Shown piece after piece: positions 42,856 to 62,080 of a stretch of DNA of 64,000 nt; position 1 is the stretch's first letter, and each line of letters starts with the position of its first letter. Under the pieces are notes generated by a model, which saw nothing but the letters and a program-made list of their open reading frames with translations, made no database searches and had not been told where the DNA came from. This DNA comes from an uncultured delta proteobacterium (GTDB lineage Bacteria; Desulfobacterota; Binatia; UBA9968): the NCBI GenBank assembly GCA_963840855.1, contig CAWJBB010000065.1, positions 75,856-139,855 of the forward strand. Direction: 5' to 3'. The position numbers were made by a program, and so were the translations under genes.

Positions 42856-45165
42856 TTAGTGTTCTTCGGCTTTCCGTATCGCCGCCCAGAGTTTGGGCGC
42901 GGTGTAAGGCATGTCGACGTGGTCGATACCGAGGGGAGCCAGCGCGTCCATGACGGCGTTGGCCACCGCCGGCGGCGCCCCGTTGCATCCGGCCTCGCCC
43001 ACGCCCTTGACCCCCAACGGATTAAATGGATTCGGCGTCACCGTCTCGCCCAGTGTGAGCTGAGGCATGTCGCCGGCGCGCGGCACCGCGTAATTAATCA
43101 ACGAGCCGGTGAGAACCTCGCCGTCGTCACCAAAGAGCATCTGTTCGCGCAGCGCTTCACCGAGGCCCTGAGCCACGCCGCCGTGAATCTGCCCATTGAG
43201 AATCATCGGGTTGATGACAACGCCGCAGTCATCGACCAGGACGAGTTTTTCCAGCGTCGGCGTCCCGGTTTCCCGATCGATTCTGACCACCGCCAAATGC
43301 GCGCCGAAGCCCCAGGCTTCGCGCTTCGGATCAAAAAAGGCGGTGTCTTGAAGGCCGGGTTCCACACCGCGCGGAACGTTTCCTCCGTACGCAGCGGCGG
43401 CAATCTGGCGCCAGGAAACTTTTTTGTCGGGCACTCCAGCCACCGCGAAGCCGCCATCCGTCTGAACGATGTCCTCGGCTGCCGCCTCCATCAAATGCGC
43501 GGCGATACGGCGCGCCTTTTCCATGACGCGATCAATAGCAACTGCCAAGGCCCCGCCGCCCATGATGGCGCTGCGGCTGCCAAAGGTGCCGCCGCCCTGC
43601 TGGACCACCAGCGTATCGCCGTGTCGAATCGCCACGTGATCCATGGAAACGCCCATCTTCTCTGCCGTAACCTGGGCAAACACGGTCTCATGCCCTTGCC
43701 CATGGGGGCTGGAACCGGTGAGCACCGTAATGTCTCCGCTGCGCTCCACCCGAACCGTGGCGCTCTCAAAGCCGGCGCCGCCACTCGGCTCGGCAAAAGT
43801 CGAGAGGCCCACGCCGACCAACTCGCCGCGTTTGCGCGCGTCGTCTCGGTAGCGAATAAGTTTTTCGTAGTCGGACAACCGCAGCGCCTCGGCGAGCGAC
43901 TTTTCATAGTCACCCGAGTCGTATTCGACGTTTACGCCCGTGCGGTACGGGAACTGCTCGGGGCGAATAAAATTCTTGCGCCGGATTTCCAGACAGTCCA
44001 TGCCCAACTCGCGCGCCGCTTTGTCGATCAACCGCTCGATATTCAGCACCGACTCCGGCCTCCCCGCGCCGCGATATGGACCGGTGGGGACGGTATTGGT
44101 AAAGACCGCCAACACCTCGACGGAGCAGTTTTGGATCTGGTAGCAGCCCGGGGCCATCGCCATCATGCGCAGCGGCGGTATCGCGGAAAGGGAGTTCAGG
44201 TAAGCGCCCAGATTCCCGATCACGCGCACTTTCAAGCCGAGCATGGTGCCATCCCGCTTGACGGCCAGCTCGGACGTCATCACCTGGTCGCGCCCTTGAT
44301 TCGTGGTGACGAAATCCTCGCTGCGCGTGGAGATCCACTTGACGGGCCGGCCGAGCTTAAGCGCCAGATGACTGGCCAGCGCGTCTTCCTGGTAGAGGAG
44401 TCCTTTGCTGCCGAACCCGCCGCCGACATCGGGCGCGATGACGCGAATCCTGTGCTCAGGAAGTCCGATCGCGGTGGCAAGATCCGTGCGCACGCGGTGC
44501 GGGCTCTGAGTTGAGAGCCAAACAGTCAGATCTCCCGTCGGTTCCGGCTTCGCCACGATGCCTCGCGGCTCCATCGCCAGCGCCACCAATCTCGGGCTGG
44601 CGATACGCATCCGAACGATATGCTCGGCCTCGGCGAATGCCTTGTCGACATCGCCGCCTGATTTCCGTGTGATGTAGCACAGGTTGCTTCCAGCTCCTCG
44701 CGGGCGAGCGGCGCGCCGGGCTCCAGCGCCTTTTCGGCATTAACGACCGCTGGCAGCGCTTCGTATTCCACAACGATGGCGCTCGCGGCATCCTGGGCGA
44801 GGGCGCGGCTTTCGGCAACCACCGCCGCCACGGGAGTGCCGGCCGCGTGGACGGCCCCGCGCGCCAGCAGCGGATGGGGCGGTATCTTCATGCCGGACAC
44901 CATCGGGATAGCCGGGACATGCAACTGTTCGCTGAGGTCATCGCCGATCACCACGGCGATCACTCCGGACATCGCCTTCGCTGCGCTCGTATCGATGGAA
45001 ATTATTTTCGCATGCGGGTAGGGGCTACGCTGAAGCGCCATGTGGAGCATTCCTGGTAGCTGGATGTCCTCGGTATAAGCATCCTATGCCGGTAATCAGG
45101 GGCCCGTCTTCGACGCGGCGTATCGACGCGCCGATAAGTCCAGTCGTGGTGTGCTCTGTTGTCAT
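42856..45165 (-). CDS. Xanthine-dehydrogenase-family Mo-binding large subunit (CoxL-like; apparent frameshifts near 44690 and 45075)
   Basis: GASIRRVED, RSPYPHA, DVGGGFGSK, PYRGAGRPE, GQGHET, GTFGSRS, KGVGEAG. Confidence 0.88.
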
Positions 45166-45299
45166 GATGAAGCCTCGTGTTCAAAAAAATGCTTGTGGCT
45201 CGTGTTCGCATTCGTGACCAATGTTCGTAAACTAGCACGATCACGAATCACGAGCACGACTGTTCCCTTTCGCCTTACGCCGGGAGCCTTATATTAGGT

Positions 45300-45500
45300 C
45301 TGTTGCAGATTATCATATTGGAGATCATGTTTATGTGACACCGATTTCAAGAGCTTGCTGGAATGAGGACCATCGGCGCCTAATCCCTCTCACGAGGATC
45401 AAGGACAGACTGTCCCGTCCAGTAAGAGAACGGATCTGAGGTTCAATAGAAAGTTGTCCCTTTGTTGAGGACTTATATAAGGCGAACTTTCCGTTCAAAG
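45300..45500 (+). ncRNA. Putative IS110 bridge RNA (ends approximate)
   Basis: Two internal loops whose strands match the target (CGGCGCCT / AGGACAG) and donor (ATAGAAAGT / ATATAAG) junction sequences. Confidence 0.7.
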
Positions 45501-45540
45501 CTATTGGAATTGGAAGAACACAACCAAGGAGGAAGAGAGA

Positions 45541-46767
45541 GTGAAGCGATACTATGTGGGAGTGGATTGGGCTGATGAATTTCACCAGGTATGGGTCAGC
45601 GATGCCGAGGGCAAGAAAGTAGCTGAGATGAAGGTTGAGCAGAGTCCCAAGGGCATGGGCGAGTTTGGCCGTTGGCTCCATGAACGTCAGGCAGAACAGA
45701 TAGAGCTTTGGGCGGCCATCGAGAAGCCCCAGGGGCGGATTGTGGATTTTCTGTTGGACCACGGGGTAGTGGTCTATCCGGTTAATCCCAAGGCCCTGGA
45801 CCGGGTCAGGGACCGGTTTCGCATGAGCCAATCCAAGAGCGACTCCTTTGATGCTTATGTATTGGCGGACTTTGTCAGGACCGATCACGCTCATTTGCGA
45901 GCTCTTGAGCCTAACTCTGCTCAGGCCCAAGAGTTTAAGATGCTCACCCGGGATCACCACCGATTGGGGCGCCATAAGACTCGGCTCATCAATCAGATCG
46001 TGGTAACGCTCAAAGAGTATTACCCTCGCCCCCTGGAGGTTTTCTCTGATCTGGAATCGAAGATCGCGTTGGATTTTCTCACCCAGTATCCGACTCCGCG
46101 GGCACTGTCTGATCTTACCCGTAGAAAATGGAACCGCTTTGCCAAGCGCGAGCACCATCTCGGTGAGGCGCGCTGTAAAGAGCTGTGGGAGAAGCTGAAC
46201 CAGCCGCAGTTGGGAATTCCAGAACACGTGGTCAGAGCCAAGGCGCAATTGCTTTTGGTGCTCGTCGCTCAGCTTAAGGCCTTGGCTCAGGCGGTCGAGA
46301 GCTATAGCGAGGAGATCCAACGTTTTTTCGCCTCTATGCCGGCGGCTAAGCTTGCGCAGACACTGCCGGGAGGAAAAAGTGGGACCATCGTACCGATGCT
46401 TTGGGCCGAGCTGGGCGATGTCAAGAGCCGATGGAAATCCTTTAGGCACCTTCAAGCCGAAGCGGGAGGGGTCCCGGTAACCCAATCCAGCGGCAAGAGC
46501 CATGTCGTACTGTTTCGTTATGCCTGTAACAAGCTGATGCGATACGCCTCGTACTGGTTGTCGTTTAACTCGCTCAATCGCTGTGAGTGGGCGAACAAAT
46601 ACTATCGCGACCAACGGGCGAAAGGACATCATCATCCCCAAGCGCTTAGGGCTTTGGCAGCGAAGTGGTTGAAAATTATTTTCATCATGTGGAGAGACGA
46701 TAAGCCGTACGATGAGAACTATCACTTGGCGAACATCGCCCGTCAGACGATACGCCAGGCGGCATGA
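45541..46767 (+). CDS. IS110 DEDD recombinase/transposase
   Basis: YVGVDWA, AIE, KSDSFDA (DEDD); C-terminal PVTQSSGKS with catalytic Ser, ALRALA.KW. Confidence 0.95.
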   Translation: MKRYYVGVDWADEFHQVWVSDAEGKKVAEMKVEQSPKGMGEFGRWLHERQAEQIELWAAIEKPQGRIVDFLLDHGVVVYPVNPKALDRVRDRFRMSQSKSDSFDAYVLADFVRTDHAHLRALEPNSAQAQEFKMLTRDHHRLGRHKTRLINQIVVTLKEYYPRPLEVFSDLESKIALDFLTQYPTPRALSDLTRRKWNRFAKREHHLGEARCKELWEKLNQPQLGIPEHVVRAKAQLLLVLVAQLKALAQAVESYSEEIQRFFASMPAAKLAQTLPGGKSGTIVPMLWAELGDVKSRWKSFRHLQAEAGGVPVTQSSGKSHVVLFRYACNKLMRYASYWLSFNSLNRCEWANKYYRDQRAKGHHHPQALRALAAKWLKIIFIMWRDDKPYDENYHLANIARQTIRQAA

Positions 46768-46838
46768 AAAAAAATAAACAGGGGACTTGACAAGTCTCAT
46801 AGAATGTCTGTCCTGAGCAAAGTCGAAGGAGCTCACGC

Positions 46839-47828
46839 CTATTTGATCACCTTGTCCGCCCGGTACAGCACAGACTGTGGAATCGTCACGCCGATTTGCT
46901 TCGCGGTTTTCAGATTGATGACGAACTCAAACTTGGTTGGCTGTTCCACGGGTAAATCTGCGGGCTTAGTGCCTTTGAGAATCTTGTCCACGAAAACAGC
47001 CGCCCGCCGCCACCGCTCTCCATCGTCAACGCCGTATGAAATCAGTCCGCCTTCCTCGGCCCAGAGGGCCAGCCCGCACATCGTGGGCAAACGATTCTTG
47101 CTGGCAATCTCCAGAAGCGTTTTTCGGTGTCGCAAGGTAACGCTGCCATGAAAAATGATCAGCCCATCGGCGCGCTCCTTGGTCATTGCGGCGTAGGCGT
47201 TCGCAAATTGGCTCGGCTCCTTTACCTGCAAGGATTGAATCTTTATTCCTAAAGAGCGCCCCGCTCGGTCTGTTTCTTTCACTTCATCCAGATCGGATCT
47301 TGCACCGCCGTGGAGAACGGCTGCTCGCGAGATCTTAGGAAATGTTTCCTTTAAGAGTTCGAGCCGCTTTGCAGTCATACCCATATCGATGTTCGTGGTT
47401 CCGGTCACATTGCCACCGGGACGGGCAAGACTAGCCACCAAACCCGAAGCCACCAGATCGGTGCCGCTGCCAGCGACAATGGGGATCTTGTTAGTGACTT
47501 TCGTGGCTGCCGAAATTGCCGGTCCTCCTGCGACAATAATTTCAACTCCAAGTCCGACCAATTCTGTAGCCAAACCTTGCAACCGTTCCCGTTTGCCCTC
47601 GGCGTAGCGAGTTTCGACGATAAGGTTCTGACCCTCGACATAACCCAACTCCCGCAAACGCTGGCGAAAGGCCTCTTGGTAAGGCGTGCCGGTATTCATT
47701 AAGAATCCAATCCGGCGGACCTTAGTCGCCTGCTGGGCCTGGGCTAGTTGGCGGTCGGTCAAAGTAAAGAAAGCAAGTGCGACTAGAAGAAATTTGAAAG
47801 TTCCGAATGTGGACCTGTGAGTCGGCAT
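46839..47828 (-). CDS. ABC substrate-binding protein (aromatic amino acid-like family)
   Basis: RIGFL, LRELGYVEGQN, SLARPGGNVTG, KILKGTKPADLPVEQPTKFE; start approximate. Confidence 0.88.
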   Translation of the reverse strand: MPTHRSTFGTFKFLLVALAFFTLTDRQLAQAQQATKVRRIGFLMNTGTPYQEAFRQRLRELGYVEGQNLIVETRYAEGKRERLQGLATELVGLGVEIIVAGGPAISAATKVTNKIPIVAGSGTDLVASGLVASLARPGGNVTGTTNIDMGMTAKRLELLKETFPKISRAAVLHGGARSDLDEVKETDRAGRSLGIKIQSLQVKEPSQFANAYAAMTKERADGLIIFHGSVTLRHRKTLLEIASKNRLPTMCGLALWAEEGGLISYGVDDGERWRRAAVFVDKILKGTKPADLPVEQPTKFEFVINLKTAKQIGVTIPQSVLYRADKVIK

Positions 47829-48092
47829 TTGTCCTCCTCTCAAGAAGAGATAAGCGCGATAGAAGGCCCGACCGAAAACCGCCACGTTAAGCGATTAAAC
47901 TGTCATTCGGCTTCGTTGCCGAACCAAAATGGGTTAGCAAACGGGAAAGCGTTCTGCTTATCTCACCGCCCGCCTTTCTCTGTCAAGCCTTACTTAAGAA
48001 CCGTAGGGCAATCGTTATGCCAAGACCAGCAAAGACGGGGATTTGAGAAAGTACTTGTAATAACGGAAGAATTTTGCGGACCAGAGTCGACG

Positions 48093-56433: not shown

Positions 56434-56760
56434 GAAAGCCTCCCTGTCCTGCTTCCTAAGAACGCTGCTGAATTACCGAACCAAAAGGCACGATTCCTTG
56501 TTTCGCCAGACTGCGCGAAAACTCCGTTCATGGTTCGACTGGGCTCACCACGAACGGATATGAGACCTTACAAATCAAACATTTAGCCGTTCGCCCTGAG
56601 CTTCGTCGAAGGGCTCCTAAAGAGTTTTCACACAGTCTGTCGCTCGGCATGACAGTCGATGCGTAATCGTCAGGAGTGCGTCATCCTGAGCGTCAGCGAA
56701 GGATCTCGGCCTCGATATACCCATTACTGCACCACTCCAATACTCCATCTCCCCGTTCTT

Positions 56761-61880: not shown

Positions 61881-62080
61881 TTAGATTCCTCTCACGGTCT
61901 TCAACTCCATCTTCCATTCTCGATCTTCCATCCTCGACTAGTGAACTGTAACGCCCTGCGTTGCCGTTCATGGTTCGAGAGCTCACCACGAACGGTTTGC
62001 CTTGACTCGTCCTCACCCTGAGCTTGTCGACGGGACTTCTTCGAACTTAAACGTGAAACCAAGCTGTCACGCCTAGTACG

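Follow-up and report, generated by a model that had tools for sequence, protein, structure and literature searches.

Introduction

IS621 of Escherichia coli is a described insertion sequence of the IS110 group that moves by bridge-RNA-guided recombination. The mechanism, the covariation approach and the targeting of repetitive extragenic palindromic (REP) sequences are already in print (PMC11208160, PMC11208158, PMC13626964, 10.64898/2026.03.19.712850). Once circular, the element rebuilds a promoter across its core, upstream of the RNA (Durrant et al., PMC11208160), and the right target guide of IS621 comprises four bases, a 7-nt version having been engineered (Durrant et al., Methods, PMC11208160). 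The roles of the catalytic residues of IS621, a coiled-coil domain of 66 residues and the handshake logic are described in PMC11208158, where full handshake complementarity was made by mutation in a “post-HSB” RNA. The current study deals with a 64,000-nt stretch of DNA, hereafter the window (contig CAWJBB010000065.1, C65:75856-139855), from the 7.1-Mb assembly GCA_963840855.1 of an uncultured delta proteobacterium, which consists of 93 contigs. Its positions 45288-46809 very probably represent an insertion sequence of the IS110 group whose movement relies, in the manner of IS621, on recombination guided by a bridge RNA. We document its boundaries, its family of copies, the family and fold of its protein, the architecture of its RNA, the covariation of the guides with flanks and element ends, and the conservation of its promoter.

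Results

Boundaries and copies of the element

Five copies of the element are present in the host assembly, namely, the window copy, its close sister copies C35 and C81 (the three being about 98% identical), and C18 and C61, which form a second subfamily at 78%. Their lengths, counted with both CT dinucleotides, are 1522, 1522, 1521, 1514 and 1514 bp, and the ends are identical in all five, starting with CT-TATATTAG and finishing with CATAGAA[A/T]GT-CT. The CT is found at both junctions of the five copies and only once in uninterrupted paralogs. Rejoining the flanks of the window copy via one CT yields the empty site GGGAGC-CT-GTCCTGAGC, which aligns without gaps to C32:32386-32435 (48/50 positions). 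The rejoined flanks of C35 show the same gapless agreement with C34:119288-119447 (150/160) and with 15 further paralogs, those of C81 with a site on C67 (84% over 122 bp). According to these gapless alignments, the element consists of 1520 bp and a single CT, and nothing else has been duplicated. Terminal inverted repeats are lacking, in that the two ends are not linked by any of the 20 inverted pairs that were found. The left end before the recombinase measures 253 bp, and 42 bp follow the stop codon. A first-pass annotation had proposed these ends and CT junctions, and all of its strings and coordinates were recovered in the sequence; it had named copies with different ends as evidence that would speak against it, and the four other copies keep the same ends.

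The C81 copy (L003, G000:C81:64971-66492) has suffered a one-base deletion and its open reading frame (ORF) stops after 218 codons, with the bridge-RNA region intact. The C35 copy (G000:C35:23246-24768) interrupts an ABC_sub_bind (PF04392) gene of a large family, and sixteen uninterrupted paralogous stretches align across its insertion point.

Guides of the target-binding loop

Covariation was investigated in relatives from two sources. Genome contigs provided seven loci, five of them usable, in metagenome-assembled genomes (MAGs) titled Binatia, Deltaproteobacteria and Syntrophobacteraceae; metagenome contigs yielded 599 pattern matches and at least 308 relatives, from which we retained the best 80 (64-96% protein identity). 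Loops, ends and flanks were tabulated for 90 loci; no use was made of the short fragments L031 and L032. Locus L030, whose recombinase frame contains 14 stops and is broken into pieces, was taken out of the protein alignments and kept in the DNA tables.

As right target guide we took the 7 nt that end two bases upstream of [T/C]GTCC. This guide and a right flank were available together for 80 loci, and the removal of 14 exact duplicates left 66 loci with 23 distinct guides. All five non-core positions are complementary to the flank in 48 of the 66 loci, four positions in 16, two in L082 and one in L058; with G:T wobble permitted, complementarity is complete in 59. The mean match of 4.65 out of five compares with 2.36 in permuted pairings (standard deviation (sd) 0.13, maximum 2.91 in 10,000). 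One example is found within the host genome itself, where AGGACAG of the window copy corresponds to CTGTCCT, and AGGGCAG of C35 and C81 to CTGCCCT. In the window copy, L028 and L030 the pairing ends at 7 nt, the eighth position being mismatched, as judged by eye.

For the left target guide, 75 loci were reduced to 71 by the removal of four exact duplicates, and six loci anchored in the wrong loop (L040, L045, L055, L084, L092, L107) were set aside. The best 8-nt window matches the 8 nt directly to the left of the core at a mean of 6.59 out of eight positions, versus 4.23 in permuted pairings (sd 0.14, maximum 4.75 in 5,000). With an offset uncertain by one base, this best window is followed by CT in 29 of the 71 loci, including the window copy, and by CG, CC, CA, GA, AA, TA or TT in the other 42, which would be compatible with a left guide that leaves one or both core bases of the bottom strand unpaired. 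The 5' side of loop 1 seems to be shifted by one base between subfamilies. It is this covariation across homologs that places the guide matches far beyond chance. The first-pass annotation, which had suggested such a comparison as a check, is borne out for loop 1: AGGACAG is exact, the left guide matches at 6/8 positions, and both guides covary with their flanks across about 70 loci (48/66 complete; 6.59 versus 4.23).

Donor-binding loop guides and handshake dinucleotides

The second loop follows the ends of the element in the same way. In 78 of 83 loci its left guide is identical to the 9 nt that terminate the right end, and guide and end have changed jointly in L027 (ATAGAATGT) and L111 (ATAGAAAAT). 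Of 80 loci, 77 have a right guide that complements the initial 7 nt of the left end, and in three loci AGATAAG is paired with CTTATCT; a longer extension of this guide is inconsistent between subfamilies. The two matches proposed beforehand for loop 2, ATAGAAAGT at 8/9 positions and an exact ATATAAG, are thus present in the window copy and track the ends across loci, and the predicted length of 7 nt holds for the right target guide and the right donor guide alike, both being exact in this copy.

The dinucleotides downstream of the two right guides, which the first-pass annotation does not mention, are conserved as well. AC follows the right target guide in 86 of 87 loci, and the last two bases of the donor are GT in 83 of 85; L111 has AT paired with AT. 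After the right donor guide, 86 of 88 loci have GC; on the left, a C adjoins the core in 73 of 76, and at the donor loop of L111 an A pairs with T. A repeat finder independently recovered this second handshake pairing in the window copy as inverted repeat I4, which connects 45286-45297 with 45472-45483 (GCCTTATATTAG versus CTTATATAAGGC). Joint changes of donor or handshake guides with the ends were observed in L027, L100, L102, L108 and L111.

Predicted structure of the bridge RNA

Loop 1 is closed by GGAC (45367-45370) and GTCC (45412-45415), loop 2 by GTTC (45441-45444) and GAAC (45484-45487). The minimum free energy fold of 45300-45500 contains two arms, each with a large internal loop, and says little when taken alone, because its z-score is only -1.47. 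Both arms are recovered by RNAalifold from an alignment of 68 distinct left ends, 66 of them from public contigs and the other two from the window copy and a copy of subfamily B. A structure of 33 pairs, named from the layout in the window and then scored on the 68 homologs, is paired in 97.1% of 2196 cells, versus 22-56% in slid controls with partners moved by one to three columns. Compensatory changes are present at 10 pairs, a number that was not reached in any of 500 shuffles, for which the mean is 2.2 (sd 1.2). The GGAC/GTCC helix of loop 1 is invariant (68/68). The two closed loops of the first-pass annotation accordingly have their stem halves in place, and the stems are conserved across homologs.

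RNAalifold also set a small pairing within the left donor guide, between columns 176-178 and 183-185. We discarded it in favour of a GGTTC/GAACT helix, in which 89.5% of cells are paired. Rfam gave no match at gathering score in the whole window and, around the element, only chance-level matches to small nucleolar and long non-coding RNAs; hence Rfam 15 yields no bridge-RNA match here.

Recombinase

The protein is recognized by PF01548 (DEDD_Tnp_IS110; 8.2e-32, residues 6-162), by PF02371 (Transposase_20; 4e-5, 24.4 bits against a cut-off of 21.3) and by NCBIfam NF033542, “IS110 family RNA-guided transposase” (cut-off 140 bits, score 154.3), and its sequence matches in the PDB are the recombinases of IS621 and ISCro4 only. 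D9, D101, D104 and S317-G318 align with D11, D102, D105 and S241-G242 of IS621. E61 lies two residues off the column of IS621 E60 and was assigned as its counterpart by eye, because phmmer placed a gap there. In an alignment of 61 family sequences D9, E61, D101, D104 and S317 are invariant, and G318 is conserved in at least 90%.

An AlphaFold2 model derived from this alignment (mean predicted local distance difference test 87.4, predicted TM-score 0.81) has chains of IS621 (8wt6/8wt9) or ISCro4 (9t56) as its ten best Foldseek matches in the PDB, with E-values of 8e-12 to 6e-11, 18-19% identity and target-normalised TM-scores of 0.57-0.60; TIGR-TasR and Nop5-family proteins come next. The annotated 408-aa ortholog of the IS621 recombinase is therefore supported by the ORF at 45541-46767, by NF033542, Pfam and the fold. 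In the model, two long helices (residues 127-160 and 228-264) are separated by several short ones (about 161-227). Given the 66 residues of the IS621 coiled-coil domain, the coiled coil seems to contain a helical insert of about 70 residues, as read from the model.

Putative junction promoter and a weak hint of transcription

Counted from TTGACA up to the T of the right CT, the spacer measures 17 bp, a length shared by 83 of the 85 right ends. If one CT is retained on circularization, the junction reads TTGACA-17-TATATT, just as the first-pass annotation had it, and both halves are conserved (Table 1). In the integrated state no good -35 element lies upstream of TATATT, and a promoter scan found no promoter-like site on the plus strand upstream of or within the left end. 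This result fits a promoter that depends on the junction, as predicted from the sequence, and proves nothing.

Twenty public runs contain part of the stretch, six of them RNA libraries, and the run list names soil, rhizosphere and sediment metagenomes. One metatranscriptome, X16, includes a contig of 216 nt, from a close relative, whose limits coincide with 45302 and 45517. It has four differences, three of which fall on guide positions (45376, 45377, 45405), and its start at 45302 is 7 nt downstream of the -10 box. The contig is a weak hint of transcription, because contigs cannot show RNA ends, the libraries may contain DNA, and other contigs cover the ORF. Contig joints at 45464/45545, 45572/45699 and 46246/46314 come from diverged relatives at low depth.

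Table 1. Features of the insertion sequence and its insertion site; positions refer to the window.
Feature	Position	Strand	Remarks
Whole insertion sequence	45288..46809	+	1522 bp with both CT cores (1520 bp plus one CT)
Left target GGGAGC (45282-45287) and left CT core (45288-45289)	45282..45289	+	Direct read; matches uninterrupted paralog
-10 half of the circle-junction promoter, TATATT	45290..45295	+	Also part of the right donor; 75/80 loci with left end
Bridge RNA (predicted extent)	45302..45498	+	Variable 5' part, then target-binding arm 45355-45425 and donor-binding arm 45428-45496
Left target guide CGGCGC and core-facing CT (CGGCGCCT)	45374..45381	+	6/8 to GGGAGCCT in the window copy
Right target guide AGGACAG (CT core plus 5 nt)	45402..45408	+	Exact reverse complement of CTGTCCT at 46808-46814
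Handshake guide AC, target-binding loop	45409..45410	+	Complementary to the last two bases of the donor, GT (46806-46807)
Left donor guide ATAGAAAGT	45446..45454	+	8/9 to right end ATAGAATGT in the window copy
Right donor guide ATATAAG	45475..45481	+	Exact reverse complement of CTTATAT at 45288-45294
Handshake guide GC, donor-binding loop	45482..45483	+	Complementary to the last two bases of the target, GC (45286-45287)
Ribosome-binding site AGGAGG	45527..45532	+	8 nt before GTG; direct read
Recombinase gene, 408 aa	45541..46767	+	GTG start; RuvC-like DEDD domain, long coiled coil with helical insert (model), Tnp domain with catalytic Ser
-35 half of the circle-junction promoter, TTGACA	46787..46792	+	81/85 right ends
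Left donor ATAGAATGT (46799-46807) and right CT core (46808-46809)	46799..46809	+	Followed by GTCCTGAG outside the element
Right target GTCCT, continuing into repeat motif CCTGAGCAAAGTCGAAGG (46812-46829)	46810..46829	+	

Target sites and the dispersed repeat

The sites that belong to guides of the window type, in the host genome and in metagenomes, read ...[A/G]GC-CT-G[T/C]CCTGAGC-N3-4-GTCGAAGG.... The motif CCTGAGC-N3-GTCGAAGG occurs in the genome in 67 exact copies, in 111 copies with at most one substitution and in 171 with up to two. Uninterrupted GCCTG[TC]CCTGAG sites number 34, and GCCTG[TC] stands directly before the motif in 14 of the 111 copies. Within the window, copies are located at 46812-46829, 56595-56612, 56685-56702 and 62017-62033, the motif being exact at 46812 and 56595 where 0.18 are expected by chance. 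The first-pass annotation had likened the empty site to repeats near 56595 and 62017. The exact motif at 56595 supports this resemblance; the site near 62017, which reads CCTGAGCTTGTCGACGG, is inexact, and the GCCTG that the guides need is missing before the motif at both positions.

The description of the target as REP-like holds in part. The repeat is dispersed (111 copies), and many of its copies are flanked by complementary arms of variable sequence, but its hairpin character is barely above that of shuffled sequence: 108-nt windows around the 111 motif copies fold at -29.8 kcal/mol, only slightly better than mononucleotide shuffles at -27.7 kcal/mol. Given this marginal folding, “REP-like” is a loose label; in Rfam the motif has no match in the window. 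The left flank mirrors the motif in C81, L043, L044 and L081, so that the insertion lies at the centre of a palindrome. The insertion site of C35 within the ABC_sub_bind gene is devoid of the repeat motif, and its right guide still matches at 7/7 positions.

The bases that precede the motif distinguish several subfamilies of the repeat (GCATGT 24, GTTCGC 17, GCCTGC 9, and others). Other subfamilies of the element (L028, L030, L034-L112) occupy different repeats, with the guides of loop 1 altered to match: CCCTCACCCT..CC-CT-CTCCC, CCCTCACCCT..CC-CT-CTCCCGCAAGCGGG, CCTCCTTCATC-CT-C[T/C]CCC, CCTCCTTCATC-CT-CCCCC and CTCCCCTTCCC-CT-CTTTTC, where hyphens delimit the core. The region G000:C85:119165 contains an uninterrupted site that is nearly identical to the one occupied by L027, a 92% relative in a Binatia MAG, which suggests that the two hosts are related and that the same copy of the repeat is occupied in the genome of L027 and empty in the host genome.

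As for its immediate surroundings, the window copy lies downstream of a minus-strand ABC_sub_bind gene (46842-47885), 29 nt from its stop. Short CACGA/TCGTG-like repeats (CACGATCACGAATCACGAGCACGA) are abundant in the 250 bp to the left of the element (45000-45280), a stretch upstream of minus-strand genes for molybdopterin enzymes.

Discussion

Weighing the evidence

Several observations weigh against a bridge-RNA element that moves like IS621. The left target guide of the window copy is among the two weakest of the 71 loci, with a match of 4/8, or of four of the five core-nearest bases plus CT; it agrees with GG-GC plus CT, the mismatch being located at the third base from the core, and the C at 45377 occurs only here, both sister copies having a G. 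The left donor guide ATAGAAAGT mismatches the element's own right end, ATAGAATGT, in the window copy, C35 and C81. The assembly contains no exact 12-nt match to the guides of the window copy and thirty sites with one mismatch, while those of the sister copies have two exact 12-nt sites. In 22 of the 68 homologs the bases C45444 and G45484, which close loop 2, do not pair, and most stem pairs are invariant and thus uninformative for or against the structure. The best of four offsets was picked per locus in the left-guide test, in the permuted pairings as well as in the real ones, and the 66 and 71 rows are not independent events, because related loci share guides and sites by descent. RNA production at this locus is at most weakly hinted at by assembled contigs, which are blind to 5' ends, and no contig of three RNA-library runs and one DNA run (45200-46900) joins 46809 to 45288, an outcome that is no evidence of absence, since assembled contigs drop rare forms.

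Part of these observations would be explained if the element were a true bridge-RNA element whose window copy and two 98% relatives are crippled and immobile, with a mismatched donor guide and, in the window copy, a drifted left guide. Mismatches in the donor were generally poorly tolerated by IS621 (PMC11208160), the left donor guide of 78 of the 83 loci matches at 9/9 positions, C81 retains an ORF of only 218 aa after its frameshift, and the unique C at 45377 and the missing exact 12-nt target point in the same direction. Yet the donor mismatch is common to three copies at three different sites, which indicates that it did not stop movement, unless it was spread by conversion, and at least two moves after its origin are the simplest reading. 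The ORFs of the window copy and C35 are intact with all catalytic residues, the right target guide of the window copy matches its flank at 7/7 positions and its right donor guide is perfect, and bridge RNA and recombinase from another copy could act in trans. We therefore regard immobility of the three copies as unlikely, though as the most serious competitor of a functional element.

It is also conceivable that the protein chooses its target mainly by reading the hairpin or REP-like structure of the repeat, with guide matches in a secondary role. Many insertion sites do lie in the repeat, which is often set between complementary arms, and a preprint on ISPpu10 describes a target stem-loop as a second layer of specificity (10.64898/2026.03.19.712850). 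Such a mechanism is improbable here, as 23 different right guides each follow their own flank, the C35 copy resides in a coding sequence without the motif and has a right guide that matches at 7/7 positions, and the motif windows fold little better than shuffles. The most sceptical view would attribute the matches of loops with flanks and ends to chance or sequence carry-over, with no guide RNA at all, and each match in the window copy is in fact short (7 to 9 nt), two of the four being imperfect. This view is already effectively refuted by the permuted pairings on 66 and 71 loci, which never come near the observed means, and by the joint changes of donor guide and end in separate lineages; the conservation of the stems with compensatory changes likewise contradicts it. 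Bridge-RNA-guided recombination thus remains the reading on which the following model is based.

Proposed mechanism

By analogy with IS621, transcription, circle formation and the catalytic steps would proceed as follows. The element would be excised as a circle in which the right end is joined to the left end through one CT. This joining would set TTGACA 17 bp from TATATT, with transcription starting near 45302, and the transcript would carry a bridge RNA of about 200 nt with two internal loops, probably together with the mRNA of the recombinase. In the second loop ATAGAAAGT and ATATAAG would hold the circle junction. A tetramer of the 408-aa recombinase is predicted to cut after the CT core and to exchange strands, D9, E61, D101 and D104 taking part in catalysis with S317 as the putative nucleophile, and once the first strands have been exchanged, the handshake dinucleotides AC and GC would form pairs with the DNA of the partner. 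The final insertion would take place in GC-CT-GYCCT sites at the 5' edge of the CCTGAGC-N3-GTCGAAGG repeat.

Significance

In principle the element offers nothing new, because the biology of bridge RNAs has been in print since 2024, and its clade may already stand in the ortholog tables of Durrant et al. Its value lies elsewhere. The bridge RNA, four guides, core and putative split promoter are readable straight from raw sequence in a distant ortholog (about 18-19% identity to the solved bridge recombinases) from uncultured bacteria of environmental metagenomes, probably of soil and groundwater, and the 23 right target guides, each matched to its own flank, represent a natural series of retargeting. 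A long right target guide and complete handshake pairing, which were engineered in IS621, are natural here. With some hesitation, and considering it rather doubtful at present, we propose that the 408-aa clade is a natural high-specificity variant of the bridge system, characterized by the helical insert, by a right target guide of 7 nt and by handshake guides that match fully in either loop. If this were true, nature would have reached features that had to be engineered into IS621, and the 23 natural guide/target pairs would provide an orthogonal, ready-made set for genome engineering. The element could serve those who seek orthogonal bridge recombinases.

Comparison with known systems

Among IS110-family elements of Pseudomonas putida, ISPpu9 and ISPpu10 also insert into repeated intergenic sequences. 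They differ in their hosts and repeats and, for ISPpu10, in a target stem-loop that is reported as second determinant, whereas one of the five copies investigated here resides in a coding sequence without the repeat. The IS1111-group elements with their seekRNA share the protein family and the idea of an RNA guide. A different arrangement sets the present element apart from them. In IS1111-group elements the RNA lies downstream of the transposase; here it is located in the 253-bp left end, upstream of the recombinase. The recombinase of ISCro4 (9t56), which was compared by protein only, comes second among the PDB matches in terms of sequence (4.9e-8) as well as fold (E-value 3.4e-11, target-normalised TM-score 0.60), with an identity of 18%.

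The most extensive agreement is with IS621 (structures 8wt6-8wt9). Both elements have a short right end and a long left end that contains the RNA and is followed by the recombinase, and both use a CT core, with the target-binding loop first and the donor-binding loop second. The left guides are in top-strand sense and the right guides complementary to the top strand, each right guide is followed on its 3' side by a handshake dinucleotide, the halves of a sigma-70 promoter, putative in the present element, lie on either side of the circle junction, and the catalytic set consists of DEDD plus Ser. The IS621 layout postulated in the first-pass annotation thus agrees in the order of parts, guides, core and predicted split promoter. 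Insertion into a dispersed repeat is another common trait, although the sequence of the repeat differs. The two systems are further distinguished by an identity of only 18-19% in the structural alignment, by the length of the protein (408 versus 326 aa), by the natural right target guide of 7 nt and by the handshake dinucleotides, both of which are fully complementary to the partner DNA here. Judged from its sequence, the element very probably works like IS621. It belongs to the IS110 group by its protein domains and fold, the CT core in the absence of terminal inverted repeats, the two-armed left end and the covariation of its loops with flanks and ends, and it may be expressed and active.

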